This document shows, piece by piece, positions 14,827 to 46,416 of a stretch of DNA of 64,000 nucleotides (within the stretch, counting starts at the first letter, position 1; each line of letters begins with the position of its first letter). A program made the position numbers and the translations under genes. The notes under the pieces are model-generated. The model was given only the letters and a program-made list of their open reading frames with translations, was not told where the DNA came from and ran no database searches. This DNA comes from a virus (lineage: Duplodnaviria > Heunggongvirae > Uroviricota > Caudoviricetes), in IMG/VR virus record IMGVR_UViG_3300042549_004104, positions 263,353 to 327,352 of that record. One strand, 5' to 3'.

Positions 14827-14850
14827 TCGTATTACTGTTACACTTAAGCC

Positions 14851-15870
14851 ATGACTAATCAAAACATTAAACGTATTGGCTTTGCTTGCAAGTGGGCAGA
14901 GATTAACAAAAAAGGTGAAATAGTCAGTACTCAGGGACTGAATACTGGCGGCACTACTATGGCATGGGCCAAACGCAATAAGCGTTCTACAGTGGAGGAA
15001 AAAATTATTGATGTTGCTAAAACTAATATCAATAATACTCATGCACTGATTAAGAAAGTTGCAGAATTACCCCCTGAACTACGTATGTTGCGATTAACTA
15101 GTGACATGTTGTCATTCTACACACATGAGGACTACTCATACTTTTGGCAAGATACTAATACACAAGATAGTCTAGCACGTTGGTTTGCACCCTTAGGTGA
15201 GACTGCACGTAAGCATGATATCCGACTAAGTTTTCATCCCGATCAATTTGTTGTATTAGCAAGCGACCGTGACGAGGTAGTAAATAAGAGTATAACTGAA
15301 TTTGAATATCACTGTGACATGGTGCGTTGGTTAGGCTATGGCAAAACATTTCAAGACTTCAAAGTTAACGTACACATTAGTGGCCGTAAAGGCCCTCAAG
15401 GCATCAGGGATGTGTATGGTAGGTTATCACCTGAAGCACGAAACACACTTACATTAGAAAACGAGGAATATACACATGGAGTCATTGACTGCCTTTCATT
15501 ATCTGATCTTGTCCCAACTGTTCTTGACATTCATCACCATTGGATTAGGGAGGGCGAATATATTAGCCCCGATTCGGAGATTGTTAACCGTGTTGTTGAT
15601 AGTTGGAGGAATGTCCGTTCTACTTTACATTATTCCGTCAGTCGGGAAGATGTACTTGGAGAACATGACCGATCTGTCGCACCCAATCATGGTGCGTTGA
15701 TTGAATCAGGACACAGTAAACAAAAATTACGTGCCCATTCAGATTACTATTGGAATGATGCAGTGAACGATTGGGCATTGACATTCCTTGATAAATTTGA
15801 TATAATGTGCGAAAGCAAAGCTAAGAACTTAGCCAGCTTTAAATTATACGAGAGAGTAAAAAATGTTTGA
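14851..15870 (+). CDS. uvdE: UV DNA damage endonuclease (UvdE/UVDE family)
   Basis: Blocks RLSFHPDQFVVLAS, TLENEEYTH, LDIHHHW and HSDYYW match UvdE TIM-barrel motifs (RTSFHPNQF, TLENDDKTYT, FDFHHF, HADYV). Confidence 0.8.
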   Translation: MTNQNIKRIGFACKWAEINKKGEIVSTQGLNTGGTTMAWAKRNKRSTVEEKIIDVAKTNINNTHALIKKVAELPPELRMLRLTSDMLSFYTHEDYSYFWQDTNTQDSLARWFAPLGETARKHDIRLSFHPDQFVVLASDRDEVVNKSITEFEYHCDMVRWLGYGKTFQDFKVNVHISGRKGPQGIRDVYGRLSPEARNTLTLENEEYTHGVIDCLSLSDLVPTVLDIHHHWIREGEYISPDSEIVNRVVDSWRNVRSTLHYSVSREDVLGEHDRSVAPNHGALIESGHSKQKLRAHSDYYWNDAVNDWALTFLDKFDIMCESKAKNLASFKLYERVKNV

Positions 15871-16276
15871 CAAATTAAAGAACTTATTCAAGAAAACAGA
15901 AAAGCCTGTTGAATCTAAGAAGCCAACTAAAGCAAAAACTAAGGCTCCAACTAAAGAATTAAGTCTTAAAGAAAAAGCAACACAAGCCGGGGAACCCTAC
16001 ATCAATATTTTAAGTTTAGATATTGATCCCAAAGATATCAACAGCGGTGCATTTGATTTAGACTTTAATGAAATTTTTGTAGCAAGATTAGTCAAAGCTG
16101 GTTACATGATGAGTAAGGATGACAAGGATACTGATATCGTAGATAGATGGTTCCAGCAAGTTTGTAGAAATGTAGTACTTGAGATGTATGAGCAAGTACA
16201 AGCGGATCCCATGAACCGTGACATTCGCCCTATCCAATCACGTGACCTTGGCAATGGACGTACAGAGGTGAGTTAA
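15863..16276 (+). CDS. hypothetical protein with a Lys-rich N-terminus
   Basis: ORF overlapping the uvdE stop. Confidence 0.45.
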   Translation: MFDKLKNLFKKTEKPVESKKPTKAKTKAPTKELSLKEKATQAGEPYINILSLDIDPKDINSGAFDLDFNEIFVARLVKAGYMMSKDDKDTDIVDRWFQQVCRNVVLEMYEQVQADPMNRDIRPIQSRDLGNGRTEVS

Positions 16277-17640
16277 TGATTGGATGGCCAGTACCTCCTA
16301 CTAATTTAAAATATTCTAAATGGTATGACTCGCTAATTAACAAGGCTTTACAAAGAAGCCTACCATTAACTATGTATACAGAACAACACCATATTGTTCC
16401 TAGAAGTTTTGGTGGCAGTGATGACATATCTAATCTAGTTAAACTTACAGCAAGAGAACATTATGTAGCGCATTTATTATTATGGAAGATACGCTTTCCT
16501 AGTGTATACGGTAGTAAAATGTCTTTTGCTTTTGGAACATTTGTTAACAGATTTAAACAAGAATATCATTCCTCATATAAGATAACAAGTAGGATTTATG
16601 CACAATTTAAAAAAGAATATTCTCTGTTGATGAGTGAGCGAATGTCAGGAGAAGGTAATCACTTCTTTGGCAAGACACATTCAGAAGAAACAAGACGAAT
16701 CATAGGTGAAAAGAGCAAGCAAAAGATTTTTAAAAAGGGACCAGAGAATCCAAATTGGGGTAAAAAACAAAATCTTTCTGATGAACAACGTAAAAAGAGA
16801 AGTGAAGGATCCAAAACTAGATGGGGGAACGATGAGTTCCGCAAAAAGATATTAACATCAAGAAAGCTATATTGGGAATCCGAAGAAGGTAGAGTAAGAG
16901 CTAACATATGGGCTGAAGGGCTTCGAGGAGTTAAACTTGATCCAGAACGTGTTGAAAAATCTGCAAGTAAAAAACGAGGGAAAAAAGGCACTGAAATATT
17001 TTCAGAACAAGCATTAGCTAATATACGTGAGGCTAACAAACATAGGATATATTCTGAAGAAGGTTTGGCAAAAATACGAGAGAGTTCAAGAAAAGTTGGA
17101 CAACGCCTCAAGTCAGAAGAACATAAGAAAAGAATTTCAGAATCAAATAAAGGCAAACACAATAATAAAGGTGAAAAAAATCCTATGTTTGGTAAGAAAC
17201 ATTCACCTGAAACAATAGCTAAAATAAAGGAAACAAAAAGAATATCTGCATTGAAAAATGCAAAGCCTAAATTTGTAGGTCCTTTGAAACCCAAAAACAT
17301 GATTACTTTTAGAGGAGTAAATTATGCTAGTATCAAAAAAGCAAGTTCGCATTTCGGTATACCAGTTGGAAAAATAAAAACACAGATAAAACATTGGGGG
17401 GAGAATCCAGACGCAGAAACAATCGCAAAGATTGATTCCGGAAAACTGAAACCACCTATGACAGCCTGGAATAAAGGTAGTATTGGATTGCAAGTTAGTT
17501 GGAATAAAGGTATGGAGGCACCTAAGTTTACATGTGAACATTGTGGTAAGATAGTAGGTGGAAAAACCAATTATATTAGGTATCACCATGATAATTGTAA
17601 ACTAAAAGTATTCACTTTATTGTCAACAAAAAAAGGTTGA
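16276..17640 (+). CDS. HNH homing endonuclease with repeated NUMOD3-like DNA-binding modules
   Basis: HHIVPRSFGGSDDISNLVKLTAREHYVAH HNH motif. At least 6 repeats of the GxxNPxxGKKHSxETxxKI type follow, as in T4 Mob and I-Hmu-type homing endonucleases. Confidence 0.8.
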   Translation: MIGWPVPPTNLKYSKWYDSLINKALQRSLPLTMYTEQHHIVPRSFGGSDDISNLVKLTAREHYVAHLLLWKIRFPSVYGSKMSFAFGTFVNRFKQEYHSSYKITSRIYAQFKKEYSLLMSERMSGEGNHFFGKTHSEETRRIIGEKSKQKIFKKGPENPNWGKKQNLSDEQRKKRSEGSKTRWGNDEFRKKILTSRKLYWESEEGRVRANIWAEGLRGVKLDPERVEKSASKKRGKKGTEIFSEQALANIREANKHRIYSEEGLAKIRESSRKVGQRLKSEEHKKRISESNKGKHNNKGEKNPMFGKKHSPETIAKIKETKRISALKNAKPKFVGPLKPKNMITFRGVNYASIKKASSHFGIPVGKIKTQIKHWGENPDAETIAKIDSGKLKPPMTAWNKGSIGLQVSWNKGMEAPKFTCEHCGKIVGGKTNYIRYHHDNCKLKVFTLLSTKKG

Positions 17641-17696: not shown

Positions 17697-19505
17697 ATGC
17701 TTATGAAAACAAACCGTGAATTTACATGTAAATATCCAATGGATAAAGACCAACATGTATTTCTGCATGACAACATTTTGAATCATGCTGAATTGATGCT
17801 TACTACAGGCAACCCTCATATGCTGTTAGGTGTTGCAAACACAAATGCAGGCAAGACTTTTGTAATTAGTAACTACTTGATTCCCAGCCTTGTTCGTTTA
17901 CAAATTCCAGGTGTTACATCTTTACGTAATTTTCTAATCATTGCGCCACCGCGTGAAGTACGTGATGACATTTGGGAAACATTAGAAAATTTAGACTATA
18001 AAACTATCGACGGTCTTACTGTTTGCGTCTATGAAGAAAAAGACTTGCTAGATGTAACGAATGGTAAGAAAAGTCTTAAAGGTGATGTTAACGTTTTAGT
18101 TGTCACCAATGCATGGTTCAATAAGAATCACAAGAATATTCACAAAAATTTAAATATTAATTTTGACTGTATTATCAATGACGAAGCACATTATGCAACC
18201 GGTGTGCCTCATCATGATGATATGAAGATTTCTACTGGTGCGAAGAACAATCAAGCAAAGCTGACAACATTTAAAAATCTTGAAGCAATGCGTGAAAATG
18301 GTTCGTTGGTGATTCAGTTTACTGCTACACCTACTGTCAGTCAAACAGGTGTTACCTATCATGGTGGCATGGCTTACTATCAATTACCAGTGATGCCGGT
18401 TGACCCATTGAAGATGCCGTTTGTGCATTTCTTGCCATCAACATTAGACAACAGTTATAGTACTATTTTTTCTTGGTATAAGAATCACGTAAGTGTGATT
18501 ACAGATTTGCAAAATGCAATCACACAAGAAACATGGGACTTAGTTACTGCAAACAGTCCGATTCGCAAGATGATGCCAGCGTGTGCTATTCGGGTTGGTG
18601 CAGTTAATGCAAAAGAGGACCGAGCATGGACTTGGGATGACTTGGAACCTATAGTTCGCAATGATTGTGCAATAGAAAATTGGGACTTAGTTGACTTGAT
18701 TGATACGTTAGAGTATGATGGTGTTTACACTAAAGATACGCTTGATGCAATTAAAATGGCTAATAGTCCTGCAAAAGAAAATCGCCCAACTATGGTTGTT
18801 GTAAAAAATAAATTGCTAATGGGTGCAAACATCCCGCGCTTGGCAGTGTCAGGTGTTGTTCGTAACCCTAGTCAACAATTAGTTGAGAACAATTGGGTTC
18901 AGTTCTATGCACGTACAAGTCGTTTGCCGTACTTCCGTAATCATGAAGATGCACGTAATTACATTTATAGTTTGCCAATTGACTATCAACAAAAATATTT
19001 CTTGTGTTTGTTGTATGTATATATGAGTAGTGCTGTGTGTATTGTATTGGCTGAAAGTGCATTGTTATCTCAAAAAGTTGTCAAGGCATATAGTGACGGT
19101 AAGTGGACGGTTGAAGAAGGACTTGGTTATTTCTTGGATAACTTGAAAACTGGCTATTACAAAACTGAGCAATTTGGAAGCAGTATTCGTTCAAATCGTA
19201 TGTTCGATGACTATATTAAATCTGAGTATTGTACAGGGTGTCCTACTGGAACAAATGGATTACCTAATTGCTTAATGAATCATTATGCAGTTTATTGTCA
19301 AAATTACGGTGACATAGACTTTGAAACATTTTTAACCGGACAATGTAACATGATTGACGGTGAGCATAAAGATGGTAACCGTAACAATAACTCAGTAGAA
19401 AATAGAGTTGGGGTTTGTTCTAATGTTCATCGTATTAAAACTTTTTTACACAAAGACCACTTGACTAGATATGTAAATGGTCAGCCAGCGGTTGACAAAT
19501 TCTAA
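17697..19505 (+). CDS. large protein (602 aa) with a DEAH box; possible SF2-like ATPase or helicase
   Basis: Start taken at the ATG with a GGAG SD (MLMKTNREF). Contains INDEAHYATG. Cys-rich C-terminus (CTGCPTGTNGLPNC). Functional assignment is weak. Confidence 0.5.
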   Translation: MLMKTNREFTCKYPMDKDQHVFLHDNILNHAELMLTTGNPHMLLGVANTNAGKTFVISNYLIPSLVRLQIPGVTSLRNFLIIAPPREVRDDIWETLENLDYKTIDGLTVCVYEEKDLLDVTNGKKSLKGDVNVLVVTNAWFNKNHKNIHKNLNINFDCIINDEAHYATGVPHHDDMKISTGAKNNQAKLTTFKNLEAMRENGSLVIQFTATPTVSQTGVTYHGGMAYYQLPVMPVDPLKMPFVHFLPSTLDNSYSTIFSWYKNHVSVITDLQNAITQETWDLVTANSPIRKMMPACAIRVGAVNAKEDRAWTWDDLEPIVRNDCAIENWDLVDLIDTLEYDGVYTKDTLDAIKMANSPAKENRPTMVVVKNKLLMGANIPRLAVSGVVRNPSQQLVENNWVQFYARTSRLPYFRNHEDARNYIYSLPIDYQQKYFLCLLYVYMSSAVCIVLAESALLSQKVVKAYSDGKWTVEEGLGYFLDNLKTGYYKTEQFGSSIRSNRMFDDYIKSEYCTGCPTGTNGLPNCLMNHYAVYCQNYGDIDFETFLTGQCNMIDGEHKDGNRNNNSVENRVGVCSNVHRIKTFLHKDHLTRYVNGQPAVDKF

Positions 19506-19520
19506 ATATACGTATATAAT
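19492..19520 (+). promoter_or_regulatory. sigma70-type promoter (TTGACA-17-TATAAT) upstream of rnh
   Basis: gTTGACAaattctaaatatacgtaTATAATacacatATG. Confidence 0.6.
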
Positions 19521-19526
19521 ACACAT

Positions 19527-20528
19527 ATGAAATACGCACTCATAGACACTGCAAATACCTTCTTTCGTGCCCGACATGTTGCTAGTTACAACAGCGATAC
19601 ATGGGAGAAGATCGGCATGGCACTACACTTGACACTTGCTAGTGTTAATCAAGCAGTAAGACGCTATGGAATTGACCACGTTGTGTTTTGTTTAGAAGGC
19701 CGTAGCTTCCGCAAAGATATCTACGAGCCCTACAAAAAGAATCGCATTGTTGATGCCATGTCAGTTACTGAGGCTGAAAAAGAAGAAAACGATATGTTTT
19801 GGGATACGTATGAAAAATTCACTACGTACATCAGAGAGAAAACTAACGTTAGCGTACTCAGGCATGAGCGGGCTGAGGCTGACGATTTGATTGCCCGCTT
19901 TATTCACTTACATCCAGATGACACGCATTATATTATTAGCACTGATTCCGATTATGTTCAGCTTATTACTGATAAAGTGTTCCAGTACAATGGAGTCACA
20001 AATGAACTTATCACACTTGACGGATACTTTAAGGATACAGGCAAACCGATATTAGACAAGAAAACTAAAGAACCTAAACTGTTGGAAGATCCAGAATATT
20101 TGCTCTTTAAGAAAATTATTCGCGGTGACGCAGGTGACAACGTATTCACCGCATATCCTAGAGCACCCGAGAAAGGTAGTAAGAATCGTGTAGGTATTCG
20201 TGAGGCATTTGAGGATCGTGACAAGCAAGGCTTTAAATGGAATAATTTCATGTTGCAACGTTGGGTAGACCACAATGGTGTAGAACAGGTTGTACGTGAT
20301 TGTTATTTACGTAATAAAATATTGATTGACTTGAAATCACAACCCGATGAAATCAAACAATTAGTTGATGATGCTATTCGGAATGGTGTTCGCACTACAG
20401 TTACTCCTCAAGTAGGTGTTCATTTAATGAAATTTTGTGGCAAATATGAACTTAATAAAATATCTGAAAATGCTGAGACTTATGCTAAGTGGCTTAATAC
20501 CCCGTATAAAGGGTCGTTGCATGAGTAA
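19527..20528 (+). CDS. rnh: T4 RNase H-like 5'-3' exonuclease / flap endonuclease
   Basis: Collinear blocks with T4 RNase H: ALIDTANTFF, VVFCLEGRSFRKDIYEPYKKNR, AEADDLIARF, YIISTDSDYVQL, KIIRGDAGDNV. Confidence 0.88.
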   Translation: MKYALIDTANTFFRARHVASYNSDTWEKIGMALHLTLASVNQAVRRYGIDHVVFCLEGRSFRKDIYEPYKKNRIVDAMSVTEAEKEENDMFWDTYEKFTTYIREKTNVSVLRHERAEADDLIARFIHLHPDDTHYIISTDSDYVQLITDKVFQYNGVTNELITLDGYFKDTGKPILDKKTKEPKLLEDPEYLLFKKIIRGDAGDNVFTAYPRAPEKGSKNRVGIREAFEDRDKQGFKWNNFMLQRWVDHNGVEQVVRDCYLRNKILIDLKSQPDEIKQLVDDAIRNGVRTTVTPQVGVHLMKFCGKYELNKISENAETYAKWLNTPYKGSLHE

Positions 20529-23913: not shown

Positions 23914-24189
23914 ATGTTTAATACAATCACACATACTGCCATCGATGCAGTTCAAACAGGTAAAAAGCAAATCGTTAGCTCAGTCGTAAAACACGAAACT
24001 CTTGCTAACACAATCAACAAATTTGTAGATGCAGAAACAGCATACACCAAAGCATTGTTTGACAACACTGTCAATACAGTCACTGGTTTCTATTCTTTGT
24101 TGACTAGTAAAGATTTTGCTAAAGAAGTTACTGAAACTTTTGTTCCTTCTTTTACAAGCACAAAAGCCGCAAGCAAAAAAACTAATTAA
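23914..24189 (+). CDS. hypothetical protein
   Basis: Strong AGGAGA SD. Confidence 0.45.
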   Translation: MFNTITHTAIDAVQTGKKQIVSSVVKHETLANTINKFVDAETAYTKALFDNTVNTVTGFYSLLTSKDFAKEVTETFVPSFTSTKAASKKTN

Positions 24190-24368
24190 TTTATGTGGAT
24201 CCTCAAACAAATTGAGAAATGCTTTAGTAAATTTAGTAACAGTTATTCAAGCAGACTAGAAGAATACATCGTCAGTCGCAATCCACAGAGCGAGGCTGAC
24301 GTTGAACGTCTTACTATTGAATTTCACCGACGAATGTCCTACTATTAGTATCCAAATAAATACTAATT

Positions 24369-24950
24369 ATGACATTAGTTTATATCCACGGTGCAAGTGC
24401 TACTGGTGAAAGTTTTAATCATATTCGTGAACATTTAGGTGGTAACGACATTGTAGTTAATTACGACAGTAGGAACGGTTTTGAAAACAATCTAAAAACT
24501 ATGACTGAACAATTAGCATCAGTTAATAAAATGTTTTTTATTGGTCATAGTTTGGGTGGAATATATGCTATTCACTTAGCCAATTCATTACCCAAGCAAA
24601 CACTTGGTGCAGTAACACTTAGCACTCCTTACGGTGGGGCTGAGGTTGCTGATTATGCTAAGTATTTTCTACCATTCAGCAGATTGATGAAAGATATTGG
24701 ACCAAGTAGTTGGGCAATGAAACGGGCAAATCGAATTAAGATACAGCATCCATGGACTAATGTAGTAACTGTAAAAGGACAAAGTCCTTTTATGGTTCAG
24801 CCTAATGATGGGGTAGTAACTATTGCAAGTCAAAAACACCATGATGATATGGAATTGATTGAAATAGATTACAATCATTATGAGGTGGTTCTTAGTGAAA
24901 AAGTCATTAATATTATTAAAGACCGAATTAAAAAGATCCAAAATAATTGA
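24369..24950 (+). CDS. alpha/beta-hydrolase (lipase/esterase-like)
   Basis: FIGHSLGG nucleophile elbow (GxSxG); N-terminal YIHGA. Confidence 0.65.
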   Translation: MTLVYIHGASATGESFNHIREHLGGNDIVVNYDSRNGFENNLKTMTEQLASVNKMFFIGHSLGGIYAIHLANSLPKQTLGAVTLSTPYGGAEVADYAKYFLPFSRLMKDIGPSSWAMKRANRIKIQHPWTNVVTVKGQSPFMVQPNDGVVTIASQKHHDDMELIEIDYNHYEVVLSEKVINIIKDRIKKIQNN

Positions 24951-25025
24951 TAGTGTATCATAACAATGATATACTTCAATCGTGTTCACGGTGAACACAA
25001 CAGACATACACACAAGGAGAAAATT

Positions 25026-25295
25026 ATGTCAGATTTTACACCAAAACTTCCAGAAGTTAAGTTTAACAAAAATGGTTACGAGATTCGCAGTGACGTTCTA
25101 GCAATGGCTAAGGATATTGTCATGCAAGACTATAACCTTAAGGTTGCGGGTTGGCAATTGACTACCCAAAAGGATGAAAAGACCGGACAACTTGTTAGCA
25201 CCGTAGCAATGCCCGAGTTTCCCGGAATGGAAAAGATTTTAGAAGCCGCTGAAAAGATGTACGGTTTTGTTAATCAAAGCACTACTAAAAAGTAA
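25026..25295 (+). CDS. hypothetical protein
   Basis: AAGGAGA SD. Followed by an intrinsic terminator. Confidence 0.5.
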   Translation: MSDFTPKLPEVKFNKNGYEIRSDVLAMAKDIVMQDYNLKVAGWQLTTQKDEKTGQLVSTVAMPEFPGMEKILEAAEKMYGFVNQSTTKK

Positions 25296-25314
25296 TACTT
25301 TTAGTTCTCAAAAA

Positions 25315-25340
25315 GGCTCCGCTAGTCGGGGCTTTTTTTT
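25315..25340 (+). terminator. rho-independent terminator
   Basis: ggctccg-ctagt-cggggc stem followed by T8. Confidence 0.75.
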
Positions 25341-25349
25341 GCCCAAAAT

Positions 25350-25378
25350 TTGACAATAAATGGATACTCTGCTATACT
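25350..25378 (+). promoter_or_regulatory. early-type sigma70 promoter, cassette copy 1 (TTGACA-17-TATACT), leader class A
   Basis: tTTGACAataaatggatactctgcTATACT, then the leader gtattgattaattaaaggagct. Confidence 0.7.
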
Positions 25379-25408
25379 ACGTGTATTGATTAATTAAAGG
25401 AGCTTGCA

Positions 25409-25681
25409 ATGACCCAAGTTTATGATGCACTGACAGACAAACAAAAACGTGAAATTCGCATGTATGGCGTTACCGAAGCCGAGATGAAAGAGGCTGTAGA
25501 ACAAAGTATTACTTTTCGTCATAGTGGTCCTGCTATGATGGCAGCTAGTCTGATGAGTGATTGTCAGGAAATGATTGCTTACGACAACGGTGGTTCTTAC
25601 GATTTCATGGTTATCGAAGATGTTCGCCAAGCACTGAATCGTGCTAAGTGGATCCTCTTTGAGTACTGTGACCAAAAGTAA
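25409..25681 (+). CDS. small early-cassette protein
   Basis: Driven by promoter copy 1; AAGGAG SD. Confidence 0.55.
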   Translation: MTQVYDALTDKQKREIRMYGVTEAEMKEAVEQSITFRHSGPAMMAASLMSDCQEMIAYDNGGSYDFMVIEDVRQALNRAKWILFEYCDQK

Positions 25682-25705
25682 TACTTTATGTTACATACCC
25701 AAAAT

Positions 25706-25734
25706 TTGACAATAAATCGTTTTGGGTATATAAT
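25706..25734 (+). promoter_or_regulatory. early-type sigma70 promoter, cassette copy 2 (TTGACAATAAAT..GGGTATATAAT), leader class A
   Basis: Near-identical to copies 1 and 6, including the downstream leader cttgtattgattgattaaaggagct. Confidence 0.75.
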
Positions 25735-25764
25735 ACTTGTATTGATTGATTAAAGGAGCTAGTT

Positions 25765-26001
25765 ATGAAGGTAAAACTTTTTGTTACAGGTAGTCAGAAT
25801 TACATGTATTTCAAAAACAAACTTCCTACTAGGCGTTGGGATTACTGTGAGACACCCCGTACAGTGACCATTATCCAAGATCCGGTCAACGTCTATCAAG
25901 ACGGTGAGTATGGTTTTGTGAAGGTTTTTGGTCGTAAGATTTTTGTCAAATGTGACGGAAGTCATTGGGAAATTGTTGGTGCTGAGAAATCCAAAACTTG
26001 A
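25765..26001 (+). CDS. small early-cassette protein
   Basis: Driven by promoter copy 2. Its stop codon lies inside the -35 box of copy 3. Confidence 0.55.
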   Translation: MKVKLFVTGSQNYMYFKNKLPTRRWDYCETPRTVTIIQDPVNVYQDGEYGFVKVFGRKIFVKCDGSHWEIVGAEKSKT

Positions 26002-26026
26002 CAATAAATCAGTTTGGGTATATAAT
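25998..26026 (+). promoter_or_regulatory. early-type sigma70 promoter, cassette copy 3, leader class B
   Basis: cTTGACAataaatcagtttgggtaTATAATag, then the leader ctcttagacagtaaagaaaaggaaacaaaATG. Confidence 0.75.
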
Positions 26027-26058
26027 AGACTCTTAGACAGTAAAGAAAAGGAAACAAA

Positions 26059-26436
26059 ATGTCAAACGAATTCAAATCTTGGGAACAAATGTCTGAGTTA
26101 GAGCAGGCCCAATGTACATATTGGGATATGTACAAGGATGCGTATGGCGTTCGTCCTCGAGGCGTTGACACTTCTAGTTGGACTTTGGAACAGTTTGAAG
26201 CAGAGTTTGCTTCACTGGCTACTGCTATTGAACAAGAAGATGCCCAGCGCAAAACTGCTGAGGCAGAAGCCATCACTAAGTTTGAACAGCATGTGACCAA
26301 CATTACATGCATGGGTGCCCGCAATCGTGAGACCGCACTTAAGTGGATTATGGATGCTAGCAACGCCAATGGCGACTGGGAGTACTTTTGTTTTACTCAG
26401 GGTTTGCCTTATAATTACTTCAGAAAAGCAGCCTAA
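26059..26436 (+). CDS. acidic early-cassette protein (125 aa)
   Basis: Driven by promoter copy 3. Rich in D/E/Q with aromatic patches. Confidence 0.6.
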   Translation: MSNEFKSWEQMSELEQAQCTYWDMYKDAYGVRPRGVDTSSWTLEQFEAEFASLATAIEQEDAQRKTAEAEAITKFEQHVTNITCMGARNRETALKWIMDASNANGDWEYFCFTQGLPYNYFRKAA

Positions 26437-26438
26437 GG

Positions 26439-26467
26439 TTGACAATAAATGGATTTGGGTATATAAT
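26439..26467 (+). promoter_or_regulatory. early-type sigma70 promoter, cassette copy 4, leader class B
   Basis: gTTGACAataaatggatttgggtaTATAATag with the same leader as copies 3 and 7. Confidence 0.75.
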
Positions 26468-26499
26468 AGAATCTTAAACAGTAAAGAAAAGGAAACAAA

Positions 26500-26772
26500 A
26501 TGTCTGCACTAGTTGAATACACATTGGAATTGTACAAATCTGACAAACGTGTTAAAGGCGGTAAGCGTCTTGTTACCAAACAAGAATTTGCCCCAGTCAC
26601 TAAAGCCTACATCAAGGCTGTGATTGAATCAAAAACTAAGTTGGGTTTTATTGTGGAAGCACATGAGACTTTTGTTACCAAACGCAACATGATGACTGGT
26701 AAGACATACCAAGAGCGTTATGATACCCCGTATTTCTGCTCACCCTCTAGCGAAACTTTTTGGAGCATGTAA
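26500..26772 (+). CDS. small early-cassette protein
   Basis: Driven by promoter copy 4. Confidence 0.55.
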   Translation: MSALVEYTLELYKSDKRVKGGKRLVTKQEFAPVTKAYIKAVIESKTKLGFIVEAHETFVTKRNMMTGKTYQERYDTPYFCSPSSETFWSM

Positions 26773-27428
26773 TGCCTAAATATCAAAAGCCTGTACTAAA
26801 TTTTAATGCTGATGATGTTTGGTCCGCGGCTTGTCAGGCCCAACGAGTCAATGGTGCGTATGTTAAACTGAGTGTGTTGTCCGAATCTGATCCTAGTATG
26901 GATCGAAAATCTAATCGCCAATTGGTAGAATCATTATTGTCAGACACTACACAAATTACCGACGAAAATCGTGAACAGGGTAAAAAGGTTCGTAAGTACT
27001 ATCAAGCATTCACTTTCAAAATTCTTAAAGGAATTAAATTAAGTGAATTTGATAACACTGCAATGCTTATTAGTAATCGTGATGTTATTAATGATAACTA
27101 TGATGTTGCCGTTATTGCTAGTCTACCTAGTTGTTACGAGCGTGGTGTAAAGCGTGATAATGTTGACCAAAGAGTTAAGTTTGCTACCGGTGGATACATA
27201 GGTAATATTAGTGACAAGGTTACAGTAACTATTGAGGTACTGAAAACTGTTTACAGCCAAAAGTGGAATACAAATTATTTTACAGGTATCACAAGTGATG
27301 ACCAAGTAGTATTTTTTGCATACAACGGTACCGGTAAGCTAGATATTGGTGACACCTATACAATTCAGGGTACTGTTAAATCACACCGTGACAACAGTAC
27401 TCAACTGAATCGGGTAAAGTTTATTTGA
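26772..27428 (+). CDS. hypothetical protein (218 aa)
   Basis: ATG overlapping the upstream stop (TAATG). Confidence 0.5.
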   Translation: MPKYQKPVLNFNADDVWSAACQAQRVNGAYVKLSVLSESDPSMDRKSNRQLVESLLSDTTQITDENREQGKKVRKYYQAFTFKILKGIKLSEFDNTAMLISNRDVINDNYDVAVIASLPSCYERGVKRDNVDQRVKFATGGYIGNISDKVTVTIEVLKTVYSQKWNTNYFTGITSDDQVVFFAYNGTGKLDIGDTYTIQGTVKSHRDNSTQLNRVKFI

Positions 27429-27619
27429 CAACATATCCGTTCTATACTATAATACAATCATTCTTTCACACACAGGAGTTTTTTATGCGTAATTTTATCC
27501 TCGGCACATTGTTTGGTATTGTAATTGCTACAGTGGGTTTCACTGGTATTGCTAAATTACTTGACAATGGCGTCAATAAAACTAAGGCAATCGTACAAGA
27601 GCAAGCCAAGGAACAGTAA
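27425..27619 (+). CDS. small membrane protein (1 TM)
   Basis: Hydrophobic core FILGTLFGIVIATVGFTGIA. Confidence 0.45.
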   Translation: MTTYPFYTIIQSFFHTQEFFMRNFILGTLFGIVIATVGFTGIAKLLDNGVNKTKAIVQEQAKEQ

Positions 27620-27711
27620 TGGCTTGGCTTGCTGTACTACTGTTAATATTCTCAGGTCATATTGTCTTTGCATTTATGTTGGCATTTATTATTTTAATTA
27701 TTGAAAGTTGA

Positions 27712-28266
27712 GTGATGAGTTTGTTTATTGTGGTTATTATTTTAACATTCTTAAGCCTTGCTATCACAGCCCTTTGCGGTATAAAGTATATTCATCCTAG
27801 TGCCCATCTTGGATTTAACGTTACTGAAAAATCAAAATTAGTACATCTTGCAAGATTCTGGTGGTGGTTAGTAACAGGATTAAATTTAAAAGAATATTCA
27901 GCCATACATAGACACAATCACGCACATTCTATGACAAAATGGGAAGATGGGATTCCACCTGATAGTGTTTTAGTACGTGCTAAAATGTTTATAGAACAAC
28001 GGCGTAATAAAAATCTTATAGAAGATTATGGTATTGAATCTCCGAACACATGGATAGATATTAACCTATATCAACGATATCATTACTTGGGTCCTGTAGT
28101 TTATTTGTTGTTATTACTATCAGTCTTAGGCACACCGGGATTTATTGTATGGATAGCACAATCAATATTCATTGTATTTTTATGTTCAGAATCTGTCAAT
28201 GCAGATAGAGATTTTTGTAGTAGTGAATTGTTAATGTTTTTGAAAACCAAAAAATATTACGAATAA
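27712..28266 (+). CDS. integral membrane protein (at least 3 TM)
   Basis: Multiple hydrophobic helices. Preceded by a 30-aa hydrophobic mini-ORF at 27619-27711. Confidence 0.5.
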   Translation: MMSLFIVVIILTFLSLAITALCGIKYIHPSAHLGFNVTEKSKLVHLARFWWWLVTGLNLKEYSAIHRHNHAHSMTKWEDGIPPDSVLVRAKMFIEQRRNKNLIEDYGIESPNTWIDINLYQRYHYLGPVVYLLLLLSVLGTPGFIVWIAQSIFIVFLCSESVNADRDFCSSELLMFLKTKKYYE

Positions 28267-28281
28267 TTTAGGAGTTAAAGA

Positions 28282-29619
28282 ATGAGTGCAAGTTGGATTA
28301 ATAAATTAAACGAGAGCGATAGCCGCCTCCACAAAGAAGATGTAATTTTGCAGGCGCTTGAGGCAAGTGTCCTAGGTAGTCGTAATAGTCAGATTTTCTT
28401 GGGCTTTACCAAAGCCTGTTACAACCCTTATGTTACGTTTGGTATTCGTCAAGTGCCCGATACAGTAGGTATAACTGATGCAGAGAATCCTTGGGACGAT
28501 TTTAATGAGTTGATGGTACAACTTAGTCAGCGTAGGTTGACAGGTCATGCCGCACGTGATGCTGTACAAAATATATCTGAACGATTTGATAGTATAGAAT
28601 GGAACACATTTTTAGCTCCAGTATTGCGTAGAGACTTACGTGCCGGTATCAGTGACAAGACAATCAATAAAATTTGTAAAGGTACTGACTATGAAGTGCC
28701 AATCTTTGGTTGTCAACTAGCAACTAATAGTGAAGGTCGCCCTGAGATGAAAGGTATCAAACGTCTTGAACCTAAACTTGATGGCGTTCGTGTATTGTTG
28801 ATGGTTATCCCTGATGAAGAAGGTAACGTTGTTACTATTTGCTTTAGTCGCAATGGTAAACAGTTTGACAACTTTGGTCATATTGAAAATCAAATACGTG
28901 ATAACTTTGTAAAACTTACACACAAAGCCGCAACAAGTAATCTGAGTATGGGCTTTGTAATGGATGGTGAAGTGATTGGTAATACATTCCAAGAACTTAT
29001 GCGTCAAGCACGCCGTAAGACTGATGTGCAAGCAGAGGATAGTGTGTTCAATGTATTTGACATTCTACCACTTGATGCTTTCCGTGAAGGTCATTGGAAT
29101 GCACAACTACACAAACGCATTACTATTTTAGAAGATATGCGTAGTATTATTGATAACATGCCTAACGTTGAATTGTTACCACATATCATGGTTGACTTGG
29201 ATACAGCGGCAGGTAAGGATCAATTAGAGCGATATGCTAAGGATCAAGTTAATCTTGGATTCGAAGGCATTATGATTAAAAACGTAGAAGCCCCATATGT
29301 CTGCAAACGCAGTACAGATTGGATGAAATGGAAACCCACTATCACAGTTGACTTAACTGTTGTTGGTCTTGAAGAAGGTACTGGAAGAAATGCCGGTCGG
29401 CTTGGTGCTCTTGTTTGTGAGGGTGAAGATGACGGTAAAATCATTCAAGTGAATGTGGGTAGTGGATATAGTGATGAGGATCGTAGTGATTATTGGATTA
29501 ACTCTAATAGCATCATTGGTCGTACTGCTGAAATCATGTGTGACGTAATTACTCAAAATCGTGATGGTACTTATAGTTTGCGTTTCCCCCGTTTTGTTAG
29601 ATTTAGGGATGATAAATGA
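28282..29619 (+). CDS. ATP-dependent DNA ligase
   Basis: Nucleotidyltransferase motif I EPKLDGVRVL (KxDGxR), motif IV EGIMIK and motif V DWMKWK. 445 aa, as in phage T4/T7-type ligases. Confidence 0.88.
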   Translation: MSASWINKLNESDSRLHKEDVILQALEASVLGSRNSQIFLGFTKACYNPYVTFGIRQVPDTVGITDAENPWDDFNELMVQLSQRRLTGHAARDAVQNISERFDSIEWNTFLAPVLRRDLRAGISDKTINKICKGTDYEVPIFGCQLATNSEGRPEMKGIKRLEPKLDGVRVLLMVIPDEEGNVVTICFSRNGKQFDNFGHIENQIRDNFVKLTHKAATSNLSMGFVMDGEVIGNTFQELMRQARRKTDVQAEDSVFNVFDILPLDAFREGHWNAQLHKRITILEDMRSIIDNMPNVELLPHIMVDLDTAAGKDQLERYAKDQVNLGFEGIMIKNVEAPYVCKRSTDWMKWKPTITVDLTVVGLEEGTGRNAGRLGALVCEGEDDGKIIQVNVGSGYSDEDRSDYWINSNSIIGRTAEIMCDVITQNRDGTYSLRFPRFVRFRDDK

Positions 29620-31111: not shown

Positions 31112-31414
31112 ATGAAAATTTCAATTGTGTTATTAGCATTATTGTGTAGTTTATCTGCCAATGTACAGGCGCAGGATGCAGTGTCAGGCAAGATCAAATA
31201 TACGAGTTGCAGTGCATGTCACGGTGCTCAAGGTCAAGGCGGAGTAGGTCCAAAACTTCAAGGCCAAAAAGCCGAAGCAATTGTGAAAAAACTCACTGCA
31301 TACAAAAACAAACAAAAAGTTGGACCACAGAGTGAATTGATGTGGGGCATGGCCGGTGCACTATCGTCTGATGATATTAAGAATATTGCCGCATACACAG
31401 CCACGCTCAAATAA
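31112..31414 (+). CDS. class I c-type cytochrome (c552/c553-like), secreted
   Basis: Signal peptide MKISIVLLALLCSLSANVQA. A single CSACHG heme-binding CxxCH motif. Downstream Met-containing LMWGMAG is a candidate sixth ligand. 100 aa. Confidence 0.75.
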   Translation: MKISIVLLALLCSLSANVQAQDAVSGKIKYTSCSACHGAQGQGGVGPKLQGQKAEAIVKKLTAYKNKQKVGPQSELMWGMAGALSSDDIKNIAAYTATLK

Positions 31415-31609: not shown

Positions 31610-32404
31610 ATGAAACGTATTTTTACTCTCTCTATTATCGCCGTAGCAATTTTGGCTACTGGTTGTACACGTATTGAAACCGGCGAGGTTGGTGTGCGTA
31701 TTGGCTTTGACCGACAAATCAAGTCCGGTGAATTATTGCCCGGTTCATTCAATCAAACTATGATTGGTGATGTATTAACATTCCCCATCAAGGACGTCAA
31801 TGTGGTGCTTGAAAACATGACACCTGTTGCTAAAGACAATTCAACAATGAAAGACTTTGATGCTGTGGTGGTTTACAACATCAACCCACAACAAGTAAGT
31901 GAGTTGTACGCAACCAAGAACAAGAGTTTCCACGCTGATTTCAAGGGAGACACTTATGTGATGTACAACTACATTGTACAAAATGCTCGAAATGCTATTT
32001 ACAAATCAGCCCGCAAGTATGAAGCATTGGACATGGCAGACAATCGCACTGACATGGAAAACTTTATCAAAGAAGAAATTGCTCGAAATCTTGGTGAAGA
32101 AAAACTAGATGGATCAATCACAATCAGTCAAGTGATGATTCGTAATGTGTTGCCCAGTGACACAGTAGTTGAATCTGCAAACGCATTGGTTCGTAGCAAA
32201 AACGAATTGAAACAGAAAGAAGTTGAAGTTAAAACTGCCGAAGCAGAAAGTCGCAGAATGGCAGCATTGGCTAATAACTCGGGTGCTAGTATTGCATTCA
32301 TGCAAGCACAAGCTATGTTGAATATCTCAGAAGGTATCAAGAACGGTCAAGTACAGACTATTGTAGTTCCTAGCAACTTCAATGCATTAATGATGCCTAA
32401 ATAA
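31610..32404 (+). CDS. lipoprotein (lipobox LATGC), possibly SPFH/band-7-like
   Basis: AAGGAAA SD. Signal peptide with a lipobox. The fold assignment is weak. Confidence 0.55.
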   Translation: MKRIFTLSIIAVAILATGCTRIETGEVGVRIGFDRQIKSGELLPGSFNQTMIGDVLTFPIKDVNVVLENMTPVAKDNSTMKDFDAVVVYNINPQQVSELYATKNKSFHADFKGDTYVMYNYIVQNARNAIYKSARKYEALDMADNRTDMENFIKEEIARNLGEEKLDGSITISQVMIRNVLPSDTVVESANALVRSKNELKQKEVEVKTAEAESRRMAALANNSGASIAFMQAQAMLNISEGIKNGQVQTIVVPSNFNALMMPK

Positions 32405-37184: not shown

Positions 37185-38387
37185 ATGTCCGAAGAAAATA
37201 AACCAATAAATTATTGTAGCTTTTGCAACAACCACAAAGATGCTGTTAAAAAACTAGTAGTCGGTGGTTCTGTTGCTATATGTAGTGATTGCGTTGAATT
37301 ATGCCAAGAACTCATAACTGATGGAGTTGTTGAACCTACAACAAAAGAATCCAATCCAGATTACGATCCAGAGTCCATAAAAGAATACCTAGATCAACAT
37401 GTCATTGGACAAGATGATGCTAAAAAGGTTCTCAGCGTAGCCATTGCTAATCACTATAAACGGATAAATAATCCTCCTAAAGATTTAGAAATACAAAAAG
37501 GCAATGTACTTATTGTAGGTCCGACAGGTAGTGGCAAAACCTTACTTGCAAAGACTGCGGCTAAATATCTTAAAGTGCCCTTCGTTGTAGCTGATGCAAC
37601 TAGTTTAACCGAAGCAGGTTATGTAGGTGATGATGTTGAATCAATGATTAACATGTTGCTCAATGCGGCTAACGGTGATAAAGACTTAGCCGAGCGTGGT
37701 ATCGTATTTGTTGATGAAATTGACAAAATTGCCCGAAAGAGTGAGAGTGTTAGTATAACACGTGATGTATCAGGTGAGGGAGTACAACAAGCATTACTCA
37801 AATTAGTTGAAGGTACAGTATGTCGCATAGCAGGAAGCGGTGGCAGAAAACATCCTGGTGCCGACATGCTTGAAATAAACACAAAAAACATATTATTCAT
37901 TGCAGGCGGGGCTTTTGTTGGATTGAAGGAAGTAATAGGAAATAGATTAAATGGAACAAGTATCGGGTTTCAAGCGGCTATCAAAGATAATAAAAAAGAG
38001 GGTGAACTAAGCAAAGTTACCCCTGATGATTTAACAAAGTACGGAATGATTCCAGAATTCATAGGTAGATTTACTACTACAGTTAGTATTGATGAATTAG
38101 ATAAAGAACAGTTGATTCATATCTTAACCGATGTTAAAAATAATTATATCAGCCAATACAAATATTTGCTTAAATTAGATAATATCGAACTTACATTTAC
38201 CCAAGATGCATTGGAACAAATGGCAGAAAATTCATTAACTCTGAAAACAGGGGCTCGTGGATTGCATACAGAAATTGAGCGAGTATTAATGCCGCATATG
38301 TTCCTCACCAAATCATACCGTCAAAATAACATAAAATTGCTAAATATTAACAAGGAGCAGATTTTAAATCCAAAATCTTTGTTATGA
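37185..38387 (+). CDS. clpX: ClpX AAA+ unfoldase
   Basis: N-terminal C4 zinc-binding domain (CSFCNN...CSDCVELC). Walker A GPTGSGKT. GYVG pore-1 loop. Walker B IVFVDEIDKI. IGF ClpP-docking loop (SIGFQAA). Confidence 0.93.
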   Translation: MSEENKPINYCSFCNNHKDAVKKLVVGGSVAICSDCVELCQELITDGVVEPTTKESNPDYDPESIKEYLDQHVIGQDDAKKVLSVAIANHYKRINNPPKDLEIQKGNVLIVGPTGSGKTLLAKTAAKYLKVPFVVADATSLTEAGYVGDDVESMINMLLNAANGDKDLAERGIVFVDEIDKIARKSESVSITRDVSGEGVQQALLKLVEGTVCRIAGSGGRKHPGADMLEINTKNILFIAGGAFVGLKEVIGNRLNGTSIGFQAAIKDNKKEGELSKVTPDDLTKYGMIPEFIGRFTTTVSIDELDKEQLIHILTDVKNNYISQYKYLLKLDNIELTFTQDALEQMAENSLTLKTGARGLHTEIERVLMPHMFLTKSYRQNNIKLLNINKEQILNPKSLL

Positions 38388-38596
38388 GTAAGAAAATTCC
38401 AGTATTTGACAACAATGTAGAGAAAGCATTACGTAAACTTAAAAAAAAGTTAACCGAATCCGGTTTACTACAAGAGGTCAGAGAACGTCAGGAATTTGTC
38501 AAACCAACCATAAAAAAGAAGATTGCCAAAAGTCAAGCAAAAAGACGTTGGAAGAAACACTTGCGTGACCAACAATTGCCCCCTAAAATGTACTAA
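38384..38596 (+). CDS. rpsU: ribosomal protein bS21
   Basis: 70 aa, basic. FDNNVEKALRKLKKKLTESGLLQEVRERQEFVKPTIKKKIAKSQAKRRW aligns with E. coli S21 ([44 protein letters not shown]). ATGA-coupled to clpX. Confidence 0.85.
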   Translation: MSKKIPVFDNNVEKALRKLKKKLTESGLLQEVRERQEFVKPTIKKKIAKSQAKRRWKKHLRDQQLPPKMY

Positions 38597-38703
38597 CCCA
38601 ATTATATACAAATATTTTACGTAATCATATAAAATAGATATATACATGTAGATGCTGTAAAGGTCTACAGTTTTAAAAATCTTGCTTAACAAAGGAGAAC
38701 ATT

Positions 38704-44632: not shown

Positions 44633-45220
44633 ATGAGTTTAGTCCCAATCGTTATCGAACAAACAAGCAAAGGTGAGCGTAGTTATGATATCTACAGCCG
44701 CTTATTGCGTGACCGTGTAATTTTGCTTGAGGGCGAAGTACATGACCAAATGGCAAATCTTATCGTTGCCCAATTACTATTTTTAGAATCAGAAGGTGAT
44801 AAAGATATTTCAATGTATATCAATAGTCCTGGTGGTAGTGTAACTGCTGGCATGGCAATCTATGATGCAATGCAATTTGTCAAACCAGAGATTCACACAA
44901 TCGTTATGGGTCAAGCATGTAGTATGGGTAGTTTGCTTGCACAAGCAGGCTCATCTGGCAAACGTTTTATGTTGCCAAATGCACGGCACATGATTCATCA
45001 GCCTTCAGGTGGCGCACGTGGACAAGCAACTGATATGCTGATTCAGGTCAATGAAATTCTTGAAATGAAAAAGAACCTCACAGAAATCTATGTTAAGCAT
45101 AATTCAAAAGGTAAAACTTTTGACGTACTTCATGCTGATATGGAACGAGATAATTTTATGAGTAGCCAACAAGCACTTGATTATGGTCTTGTAGACGAAA
45201 TAGTTACAAAACGCGGTTGA
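44633..45220 (+). CDS. clpP: ClpP serine protease
   Basis: Nearly collinear with E. coli ClpP: [48 protein letters not shown] (catalytic Ser), HQP (His). Confidence 0.96.
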
Positions 45221-45245
45221 CAATAAATCACTTTGGGTATACAAT
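45217..45245 (+). promoter_or_regulatory. early-type sigma70 promoter, cassette copy 5 (TTGACAATAAATCACTTTGGGTATACAAT), leader class C
   Basis: The -35 box overlaps the clpP TGA stop. Confidence 0.7.
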
Positions 45246-45274
45246 AGAGGCTTCTGTAGTGAAAAGGAGTTTTT

Positions 45275-45475: not shown

Positions 45476-45498
45476 TACTTTTATCTTATACCCAAAGG

Positions 45499-45527
45499 TT
45501 GACAATAAATCACTTTGGGTATATAAT
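45499..45527 (+). promoter_or_regulatory. early-type sigma70 promoter, cassette copy 6, leader class A
   Basis: gTTGACAataaatcactttgggtaTATAATacttgtattgattgattaaaggagct. Confidence 0.75.
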
Positions 45528-45558
45528 ACTTGTATTGATTGATTAAAGGAGCTTACAG

Positions 45559-45831: not shown

Positions 45832-45840
45832 GGAGTTAAC

Positions 45841-46019: not shown

Positions 46020-46391
46020 ATGAAAAAAATATTTGGTATTATGATATTGATTGGTTGTATTTCTGCCCGGGCAGAGGTAGAATTCATTACAGTAGCACAG
46101 GATCCATCTGTTTCAATTACGGTTGTAAGTGCTGACGGGATACGACCTTATCTTATTGAAACCGGAACACCCAATATCAAAAGAGTTATTAAAACATTCA
46201 GGTTTACTAAATTTTTAAAGGATCAAATAGTCATTAGTCATACTGAATACGCATGTGCTGAGGGTTTAGAACGTTCATTATGGGCACGTGATGGTAGCAC
46301 TAATGAATTATTATCTGCTATACAACCATGGACTAAGGTTAGTGGTAAAGCCTCATTAAAAATTTATGATATGGTTTGTATTAAAGGTTGA
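46020..46391 (+). CDS. secreted protein (signal peptide)
   Basis: MKKIFGIMILIGCISARA signal peptide. Confidence 0.5.
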   Translation: MKKIFGIMILIGCISARAEVEFITVAQDPSVSITVVSADGIRPYLIETGTPNIKRVIKTFRFTKFLKDQIVISHTEYACAEGLERSLWARDGSTNELLSAIQPWTKVSGKASLKIYDMVCIKG

Positions 46392-46416
46392 CAATAAATC
46401 ACTTTGGGTATATAAT
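46388..46416 (+). promoter_or_regulatory. early-type sigma70 promoter, cassette copy 7, leader class B
   Basis: gTTGACAataaatcactttgggtaTATAATagaatcttaaacagtaaacaacaggag. The -35 box overlaps the upstream TGA. Confidence 0.75.

Follow-up and report, generated by a model that had tools for sequence, protein, structure and literature searches.

We analysed a window of 64,000 nucleotides (nt) of viral DNA (Caudoviricetes; positions 263,353 to 327,352 of the IMG/VR record IMGVR_UViG_3300042549_004104), which carries, at 25350-26772, a series of repeated promoter motifs followed by small genes. Because their anatomy and their comparative signature match those of the promoter-early stem-loop (PeSL) cassettes of T4-type phages, we consider it very likely that the repeats are strong early promoter cassettes for the host polymerase (sigma70-type), which double as recombination linkers of the PeSL kind.

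In 5' to 3' direction, a unit consists of an A-rich stretch directly before the -35 box, a perfect TTGACA, a conserved 17-nt spacer (AATAAAT...TTGGGTA), a TATAAT hexamer (or TGn with a weaker -10 box), an unstructured leader of 29-34 nt ending in AAAGGA(G), and the initiation codon of a single small gene. In some units, a canonical terminator or a hairpin enclosing the -35 box is found further upstream. In others, which are minimal, the -35 box directly adjoins or overlaps the stop codon of the gene before it.

Promoter motifs and small genes in the window

A scan of the window identified exact matches to TTGACAATAAAT at 25350, 25706, 25998 and 26439, and the full 29-mer, TTGACAATAAAT-N4-TTGGGTATATAAT, is exact at 25706, 25998, 26439, 45499 and 46388. 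With up to one mismatch allowed, the 29-mer TTGACAATAAATNNNNTTGGGTATATAAT occurs six times in the 64-kb window versus 0.01 times expected from shuffles, the sixth match being the copy at 45217, which has one mismatch. The initial annotation of this DNA had described an array of four copies within 1.2 kb. Indeed, the repetition is far beyond chance, but the family extends to 45217, 45499 and 46388, i.e. its copies fall into two clusters that are separated by 20 kb and alternate with genes. Moreover, the full 29-mer and TTTGGGTATATAAT are present in only three of the four copies (25706, 25998, 26439), whereas copy 1 (25350) reads TTGACAATAAATGGATACTCTGCTATACT and shares with the other copies only the first 12 bases, TTGACAATAAAT. 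Its right half, GGATACTCTGCTATACT, represents an extended -10 element (TGCTATACT, TGn) with TATACT, which matches five of the six hexamer positions. Perfect -35 and -10 boxes separated by 17 nt, originally ascribed to all four copies, are therefore restricted to 25706, 25998 and 26439 within the array; they also occur at 45499 and 46388 (12/12 hexamer matches each), and 25350 and 45217 reach 11/12. An overlap of the -35 box with the preceding stop codon, reported for two cases, exists at 25998 but not at 26439. All copies in the window are in sense orientation and are followed by AAAGGA(G) and then ATG.

The four cassettes with their open reading frames (ORFs; lengths in amino acids, aa; pI, isoelectric point; dN/dS and pN/pS, nonsynonymous-to-synonymous ratios) and the two anchor genes are listed here; loci of relatives are designated by L and a number.

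25026..25295, + strand: O0, 89 aa, upstream anchor gene, left of the variable cassette slot in relatives; 3' end with the palindromic AAAAAGTAATACTTTT
25350..25378, + strand: cassette 1 promoter, extended -10 subclass (TTGACAATAAAT GGATACTC TGC TATACT)
25409..25681, + strand: O1, 90 aa, pI 4.7; homologues in 16 loci with 36-92% identity; dN/dS ~0.12 versus L115
25706..25734, + strand: cassette 2 promoter, exact 29-mer TTGACAATAAATCGTTTTGGGTATATAAT
25765..26001, + strand: O2, 78 aa, pI 9.4; TGA stop inside the next -35 hexamer; pN/pS ~0.5
25998..26026, + strand: cassette 3 promoter, exact 29-mer; the TGA stop of O2 (25999-26001) lies inside TTGACA
26059..26436, + strand: O3, 125 aa, phrog_21968 (function unknown), a mildly acidic helical protein with 3537 homologues
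26439..26467, + strand: cassette 4 promoter, exact 29-mer, beginning 2 nt past the TAA stop codon of O3
26500..26772, + strand: O4, 90 aa, pI 9.4; 1110 homologues; predicted beta-beta-alpha-beta core (model)
26772..27428, + strand: O5, 218 aa, downstream anchor gene; start overlaps O4 in ATGTAATG; conserved in the first locus set (28 loci) and in the second (31 loci)

Several direct repeats in an AT-rich region could also be replication-origin iterons, or packaging or partition sites. However, all copies point in the sense direction and keep a fixed distance to a start codon (29-34 nt, or else 6 nt), they are perfect or near-perfect sigma70 consensus sequences, and they form at least two clusters 20 kb apart among genes, unlike iteron arrays, which makes this explanation extremely improbable. 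We judge the origin of the array by tandem duplication of one promoter-gene unit, with subsequent divergence, to be equally implausible. The direct repeats at 25350-26772, spaced 292-441 bp, would fit such an origin, but O1-O4 are mutually unrelated, i.e. they are not paralogues and have no detectable similarity to each other although they lie behind identical or almost identical promoters and leaders, which excludes it; in addition, each ORF has its own orthologues elsewhere.

The second cluster (45217-46909) lies directly 3' of a gene for a ClpP-like protein and contains ORFs of 66, 90 (plus 55 and 123) and 152 aa. The 90-aa (MRTKTV...) and 152-aa (MGTRSL...) ORFs are among the commonest behind this promoter in other contigs. 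Its promoters, together with a sigma70 promoter downstream of O5, are as follows; another extended -10 consensus promoter is located at 31532.

27425..27453, + strand: consensus sigma70 promoter with the unrelated spacer TTGACAACATATCCGTTCTATACTATAAT; overlaps the O5 stop and is predicted to drive a 44-aa membrane ORF (27485-27619)
45217..45245, + strand: promoter with one mismatch (TACAAT); overlaps the stop of the ClpP-like gene (44633-45220), in front of a 66-aa ORF (45275-45475)
45487..45527, + strand: hairpin AUACCCAAAGG / CACUUUGGGUAU around the -35 box and exact promoter (45499-45527), followed by a class A leader and a 90-aa ORF (45559-45831)
46388..46416, + strand: exact promoter overlapping the stop of a 123-aa ORF (46020-46391), with a class B-like leader, in front of a 152-aa ORF (46451-46909)

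Distribution and conservation of the motif in relatives

The exact 29-mer is present in more than 118 IMG/VR viral stretches, with contigs of up to 367 kb among the matches listed, and in one of 185,579 species genomes, where it lies on a 1.9-kb contig of a metagenome-assembled genome from Lake Erken. A full-text literature search for the motif returned no relevant paper. Among the loci chosen by the 29-mer, 242 unique sites had enough downstream sequence for an assignment, and an ORF starting with ATG follows the promoter at a fixed distance in 240 of these. Together with the sense orientation, the perfect or near-perfect sigma70 hexamers and the 17-nt spacer, this supports the original proposal that these are promoter cassettes. 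The first ORF has a median length of 90 aa, and in 86 of 240 cases the next promoter of the family follows directly after this single ORF.

The -10 box and the ATG are separated by 29-34 nt or, in 16 sites, by exactly 6 nt; the latter are candidates for leaderless messenger RNAs (mRNAs). These 16 promoters are located in L003, L023, L027, L058, L067, L078, L079, L092, L098, L099, L103, L106, L111, L113 and L130 and front at least four gene families, e.g. MNSKINRKRRTDRNQ... (112 aa). A comparable arrangement exists in the window at 19492, where a TTGACA-N17-TATAAT promoter with unrelated spacer is followed, exactly 6 nt past the -10 box, by the ATG (19527) of a 333-aa 5'-3' exonuclease (window 19492-19529), which is likewise a candidate for a leaderless mRNA.

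Since the first loci had been chosen by the motif itself, we used a second set of 31 loci, which were fetched through the O5 protein alone (53-100% identity). Of the 91 promoters with perfect hexamers in these O5-selected loci, 50 have no mismatch in the 13 spacer positions scored and 17 have one, and the distribution is bimodal (0-2 versus 5-10 mismatches). From this bimodality in motif-independent loci we conclude that the spacer is as tightly conserved as the hexamers. Synonymous divergence in the neighbouring genes has for the most part reached saturation (pS 0.6-0.8). A second, common subclass, which includes copy 1 of the window, keeps TTGACAATAAAT and ends in TGn-TATAAT, TATACT or TACAAT; the copy 1 variant is identical at the orthologous place in L123, L124, L128 and L133.

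Variation of promoter-bounded genes among relatives

Between the anchors O0 and O5-O6, the number and kind of promoter-bounded ORFs differ by locus. The orders found between the anchors, with P for the promoter, are:

Window, L133-136: O1-P-O2-P-O3-P-O4
L138: O1-P-O3-P-O4
L137, L151, L115: P-O1-P-O4
L123, L126, L152: O1-P-[unrelated 58-aa ORF, family f39]-P-O4
L124, L125, L127: O1-P-[unrelated 59-aa ORF, family f41]-P-O4
L130-132, L139-150: quite different ORF sets, again with P between them

In L115, a segment of 733 bp (25706 to 26439, comprising promoter, leader, O2, promoter, leader and O3) is absent while both flanks align, and the single promoter and leader found there (2291-2352) aligns to both window copies flanking the segment, which is the signature of direct-repeat recombination. 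In L138, which lacks O2, the junction falls between the Shine-Dalgarno sequence and the ATG of a class A leader, and the O2 slot holds different ORFs in L123 and L124. Leaders are swapped as well: O4 lies behind a class B leader in the window but behind one of class A in seven relatives, and O3 is found behind three different leaders. The degree of nucleotide identity varies from gene to gene, both between the window and L149 (O2 95%, O0 75%, O3 80%, O4 78%, O5 69%) and between the window and L128 (O0 76%, O1 92%, O2 97%, O3 81%, O4 94%, O5 81%), and in near-identical strains, too, divergence is restricted to single genes. The breakpoints fall either within the promoter or within the stretch formed by leader and Shine-Dalgarno sequence.

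Such precise cassette-sized indels bounded by a repeat would also be expected if the cassettes were actively mobile in an integron-like manner, i.e. if a dedicated recombinase read a promoter-embedded hairpin and excised or inserted circles of promoter and ORF. In favour of this idea, the hairpin appears to be under selection for pairing (see below), and PeSL mini-circles were detected experimentally in RB49 and phi1, for which a specific stem-loop-binding protein was speculated (PMC2839356). However, the breakpoints are at no one fixed site, being in the promoter in some cases and between Shine-Dalgarno sequence and ATG in others, as expected for general homologous or microhomology recombination. 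Furthermore, the hairpin is missing from most cassettes, and no integrase or recombinase was found among the window proteins scanned. We therefore regard active mobility as improbable.

Leaders, terminators and hairpins

The regulatory elements around the four promoters comprise two leader classes and two types of stem-loops:

25310..25340, + strand: intrinsic-terminator-like stem-loop AAAAAGGCUCCG-CUAGU-CGGGGCUUUUUU with further U, 9 nt upstream of the cassette 1 -35 box
25379..25408, + strand: class A leader ACGTGTATTGATTAATTAAAGGAGCTTGCA with the Shine-Dalgarno sequence AAAGGAG; two mismatches to the class A consensus
25695..25729, + strand: copy 2 hairpin, 5' arm AUACCCAAAAU upstream of the -35 box, 3' arm GUUUUGGGUAU formed by the promoter spacer, -35 box in the loop
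25735..25764, + strand: class A leader ACTTGTATTGATTGATTAAAGGAGCTAGTT, predicted to be unstructured (fold -0.8 kcal/mol)
26027..26058, + strand: class B leader AGACTCTTAGACAGTAAAGAAAAGGAAACAAA, two mismatches, predicted to be unstructured (fold -0.9 kcal/mol)
26468..26499, + strand: class B leader of O4; most relatives have a class A leader before the same ORF

The two leader classes of the initial annotation could thus be confirmed, with class A behind 25350 (two mismatches) and 25706 and class B behind 25998 (two mismatches) and 26439. Since an Rfam search of 24900-27800 at a permissive threshold returned only chance-level matches, the leaders belong to no known RNA family.

The terminator-like element upstream of cassette 1 has a 12-bp stem and a U-run (RNA fold -13.9 kcal/mol). 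In relatives, either this same module of GCCCCG, loop, CGGGGC and T-run or the AT-rich AAAAGTAGTAC-TTT-GTACTACTTTTTT is located upstream of promoters, and a T-run of at least six within 35 nt upstream was found in 38 of 413 sites. Three cassette ORFs of the window end in the palindromic stop-codon context AAAAGTA(A/G)TACTTT (25289-25304, 25676-25690, 45468-45482), which in relatives represents the left half of the AT-rich terminator AAAAGTAGTAC-TTT-GTACTACTTTTTT, so that the final codons of the preceding gene are part of the conserved intergenic module.

In the second type of hairpin, which incorporates part of the promoter, the inverted repeat ATACCCAAA / TTTGGGTAT encloses the -35 box at copy 2 (-14.2 kcal/mol, z -2.6) and at 45499 (-20 kcal/mol, z -3.6). 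These hairpins overlap the promoter and have no U-tract; they could serve weak termination, protection of RNA 3' ends or as a protein site. In relatives, at least seven consecutive pairs in the hairpin register are present in 43 of 295 unique sites versus 4.6 expected, and the hairpin occurs in 59% of the sites that keep an upstream GTAnTACTT remnant versus 9% of the remaining sites. Compensatory variants were found in L012 (GGGACTATA / TATAGTCCC), L026 (GGGTGT / ACACCC), L007 and L097 (TTGGTATT / AATACCAA) and L042 (GATTGGG / CCCAATC). Copies 3 and 4 and those at 45217 and 46388 have no upstream stem-loop; their -35 box directly adjoins the stop codon before it or overlaps with it.

The conservation of the spacer and of the hairpin raises the question whether the 29-mer, in particular AATAAAT and TTGGGTA of its spacer together with ATACCCAAA / TTTGGGTAT, chiefly binds a phage-encoded protein, such as a repressor for early-gene shut-off or a co-factor that modifies the polymerase. 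In that case, the promoter would be subject to regulation and not just strong, which is compatible with its being an early promoter cassette. Three observations are consistent with such a site, namely a spacer whose conservation equals that of the hexamers in loci chosen without regard to the promoter, an inverted repeat with compensatory changes, and the unexplained extra consensus of T4 early promoters, which are modulated by Alt (PMC2988021). However, only ~15% of the sites possess the left arm of the inverted repeat, and the second subclass keeps TTGACAATAAAT while its right half is replaced by TGn-TATAAT, so that no single operator is common to all copies. General family scans also identified no DNA-binding protein near the cassettes. 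Binding of a phage protein as the chief role is therefore conceivable but rather unlikely, and we retain the promoter cassette as the better explanation.

The proteins encoded by the cassettes

O1-O4 have homologues with 35-92% aa identity, their pN/pS values range from 0.15 to 0.5, and dN/dS versus L115, an unsaturated comparison, is ~0.12-0.13. From this we conclude that they are real genes under purifying selection; the conservation analysis, in which they might have turned out to be non-coding, gave no indication of this. Since the ORFs are under purifying selection, their earlier description as fast-evolving is incorrect for the sequences; what changes fast is their presence, absence and order. 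O2 homologues show 43-52% aa identity in the first locus set and 95-97% nt identity in L128, L133 and L149. The upstream anchor O0 has homologues with 55-79% aa identity in 22 loci (pN/pS 0.17-0.35).

A single ORF of 78-125 aa had been assigned to each cassette, which agrees with the sizes of O1-O4 (90, 78, 125 and 90 aa), but cassette 4 also holds the 218-aa O5. There is no promoter or terminator between O4 and O5, and their overlap in ATGTAATG points to translational coupling; therefore, O5 is expected on the cassette 4 transcript, which makes this cassette at least bicistronic.

Searches of O0-O6 against PHROGs, Pfam, NCBIfam and PADLOC returned only phrog_21968 for O3 and weak matches to families of unknown function for O5, and sequence searches of O1-O4 against the PDB gave nothing below E = 0.4. 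None of the 66-152-aa ORFs of both clusters has a family annotation with a function. The AlphaFold2 (AF2) model of O3 (predicted local distance difference test, pLDDT, 87.5) contains four helices, one of ~40 residues; it had no fold match with E below 5 in the PDB (Foldseek) and matched only uncharacterised phage proteins in BFVD. Homologues of O3 are encoded by Sinorhizobium phiM12-type phages, Agrobacterium phage Atu_ph07 and a pelagiphage.

O3 had been put forward as a candidate DNA mimic. Known DNA mimics of the Ocr or ArdA type are far more acidic than O3, which has 20 Asp and Glu versus 12 Lys and Arg (net -8 over 125 aa, pI 4.6) and in which Trp, Cys and an Arg-Pro-Arg motif (R32 P33 R34) are among the invariant positions. 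Because of this mild acidity and these invariant residues, the idea is unsupported; moreover, O3 has no match to known mimic or anti-defence proteins in Pfam, NCBIfam, PADLOC or PDB sequences or among solved folds. For O4, Foldseek found no significant match of the AF2 model in the PDB. Its C-terminal 24 residues (67-90, window 26698-26769) are modelled with pLDDT below 50 and contain the invariant residues E72 Y74 D75 P77 Y78 C80 S81 P82 E85 W88 M90; such a conserved low-confidence tail would fit a short partner-binding motif. By analogy with T4, host-takeover or anti-defence roles of the cassette ORFs would be a reasonable assumption.

Proposed mechanism and points against it

We infer promoter activity and immediate-early timing from the sigma70 consensus and from the analogy to T4 (PMC2988021). 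The promoters would fire right after infection on the unmodified host polymerase and give rise to nested and overlapping early transcripts. At the same time, the near-identical regulatory modules of 60-110 bp would provide portable homology for recombination, both within the genome and between co-infecting relatives, so that a new small gene could be inserted, deleted or swapped already equipped for its expression. This is the same mechanism as proposed for PeSL cassettes in the hyperplastic regions of T4-type phages, and the cassette products would be accessory proteins.

Several points weigh against this interpretation. PeSLs were defined in T4-type phages, and the window ORFs that were scanned included no recognisable T4 core gene. 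The invariant spacer bases, which are not known sigma70 contacts, may reflect another binding factor rather than optimisation for the polymerase or gene conversion. Recombination at the repeats is deduced from comparative breakpoints. Finally, a canonical terminator is present at copy 1 only; the copy 2 hairpin is unlikely to be an efficient intrinsic terminator because of its 13-nt loop and lack of a U-tract, and copies 3 and 4 are without any stem-loop and therefore represent "Pe" without "SL".

A more far-reaching interpretation, to which we assign little probability, is that the invariant spacer and the promoter-embedded hairpin go beyond an optimisation for the polymerase and form the recognition site of a dedicated phage factor and, together with the interchangeable leaders, constitute a purpose-built platform for gene-cassette exchange and expression. 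Such a platform would resemble integron cassettes but bring its own promoter, and an abundant clade of freshwater jumbo phages would have it in common. If this were true, the 29-mer as a search key would retrieve hundreds of small early accessory genes.

Genomic context

The window has a GC content of 36% and is encoded almost wholly on the + strand; a scan of the 64 kb for tRNAs returned none. Megablast of 24000-29000 gave no nucleotide match to GenBank phages, and tblastn of a 622-aa helicase-like ORF and of O5 against phages found no match either. Besides an ATP-dependent DNA ligase, DnaK, a ClpP-like protease, a QueE-like enzyme and a metallophosphoesterase, the window encodes a UvdE endonuclease, a 5'-3' exonuclease and a homing endonuclease. 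The RNase H-like 5'-3' exonuclease is 46-49% identical to those of the jumbo phages PA5oct and CBB, which represents a weak taxonomic link.

A full-length DnaK (Hsp70), an AAA+ ATPase and the ClpP-like protease are encoded within 8 kb (37185-40593 and 44633-45220), a chaperone-protease set that is unusual in phage; the DnaK is ~68% identical to bacterial DnaK sequences in phage records. Downstream of the ligase gene, a 100-aa cytochrome c (PF00034; ~31112-31414) and a Band_7 (SPFH) gene (31610-32404) are located, both called by precomputed Pfam matches on the identical JGI contig (L153, L120). At 8805-9647 and 10817-15870, genes for a QueE-like radical-SAM enzyme, a sugar-nucleotidyltransferase/HAD fusion (~65% identical to cyanophage genes), a nucleotide-sugar epimerase and the UvdE endonuclease are grouped and hint at DNA-modification and repair modules.

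Near-identical strains also differ from the window outside of the cassettes. A 183-aa ORF (27712-28266; region 27643-28281), which shows similarity to DesA-family fatty-acid desaturases in their N-terminal part, at a score under the curated cutoff of the family (E 2e-23, 83 of 400 bits), is absent from the otherwise near-identical strain contigs L155 and L157, where the adjacent ligase gene is 89.5% and the flanking genes are 99.7-100% identical. We rejected this indel as promoter-bounded; identity breaks down from ~27643. The gene for the 454-aa homing endonuclease (NUMOD3; 16276-17640) is also present in L153 and L154, and L156 has a 248-aa gene in its place, which looks like a strain-level mobile-element polymorphism.

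Comparison with known systems

PeSL cassettes have been described in the T4-type phages RB49/phi1, PST/T4 and nt-1/KVP40 (Arbiol et al. 2010, PMC2839356; Comeau et al. 2014, PMC4122927). These composite modules combine a terminator with a sigma70 promoter and a Shine-Dalgarno sequence. They separate small ORFans of hyperplastic regions and are tied to indels and replacements, for which the crossovers were placed close to the stem-loop or in the interval from the -10 box to the ATG. The modules described here resemble them in their near-consensus sigma70 promoter (TTGACA-N17-TATAAT in RB49/phi1), followed by a Shine-Dalgarno sequence and a start codon and, in some copies, preceded by a stem-loop or terminator, as well as in the clustering of many near-identical copies among small ORFs of unknown function in variable regions. 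Common to both are also the module-bounded indels and replacements between related genomes, the crossovers between -10 box and ATG or in or near the stem-loop, and the occurrence of degraded or half elements.

However, the carrier in our case is an uncultured phage of ~360 kb without a recognised T4 core gene among the ORFs scanned, and half of the copies lack a stem-loop and have a -35 box that overlaps the stop codon before it. In one type of stem-loop, the promoter spacer forms the 3' arm and the -35 box lies in the loop, and the transcribed leader is conserved in discrete classes, which are exchanged independently of the ORF. In addition, the same 29-mer is kept across a clade with saturated synonymous sites.

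With the early promoters of T4, which carry consensus beyond the standard polymerase elements (Hinton 2010, PMC2988021), the promoters share excellent matches to host sigma70 sequences, an A/T-rich upstream region, extra conserved positions and a TGn-containing subclass, and those of T4 likewise drive many small, non-essential prereplicative genes with transcripts that read into downstream genes (PMC2988021). No homologue of Alt, AsiA or MotA was found, although no search was aimed at these proteins.

A further, possible parallel concerns the early promoters of coliphage T5. These promoters, such as PN25, are strong, and their conserved initially transcribed region contributes to promoter strength; here, the sequence just past the -10 box is conserved, too (TATAAT-AGAATCTTA).

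The finding alone reveals no new mechanism, and the element appears to be of a known kind, the PeSL; what seems to be new are the minimal copies without stem-loop, the hairpin built from the promoter, the interchangeable conserved leaders and a candidate leaderless subset. The promoter-plus-leader module is a candidate for a strong expression element. In addition, the 29-mer represents a cheap and specific handle to recognise the clade and to harvest small, presumably early, accessory genes, a pool in which host-takeover and anti-defence functions would be sought. The scale is unusual, with an identical 29-mer in more than 118 viral contigs despite saturated synonymous divergence, and promoter-linked modular shuffling, so far described in a few cultured T4-type phages, would thereby be extended to an abundant uncultured freshwater clade of ~360-kb phages.

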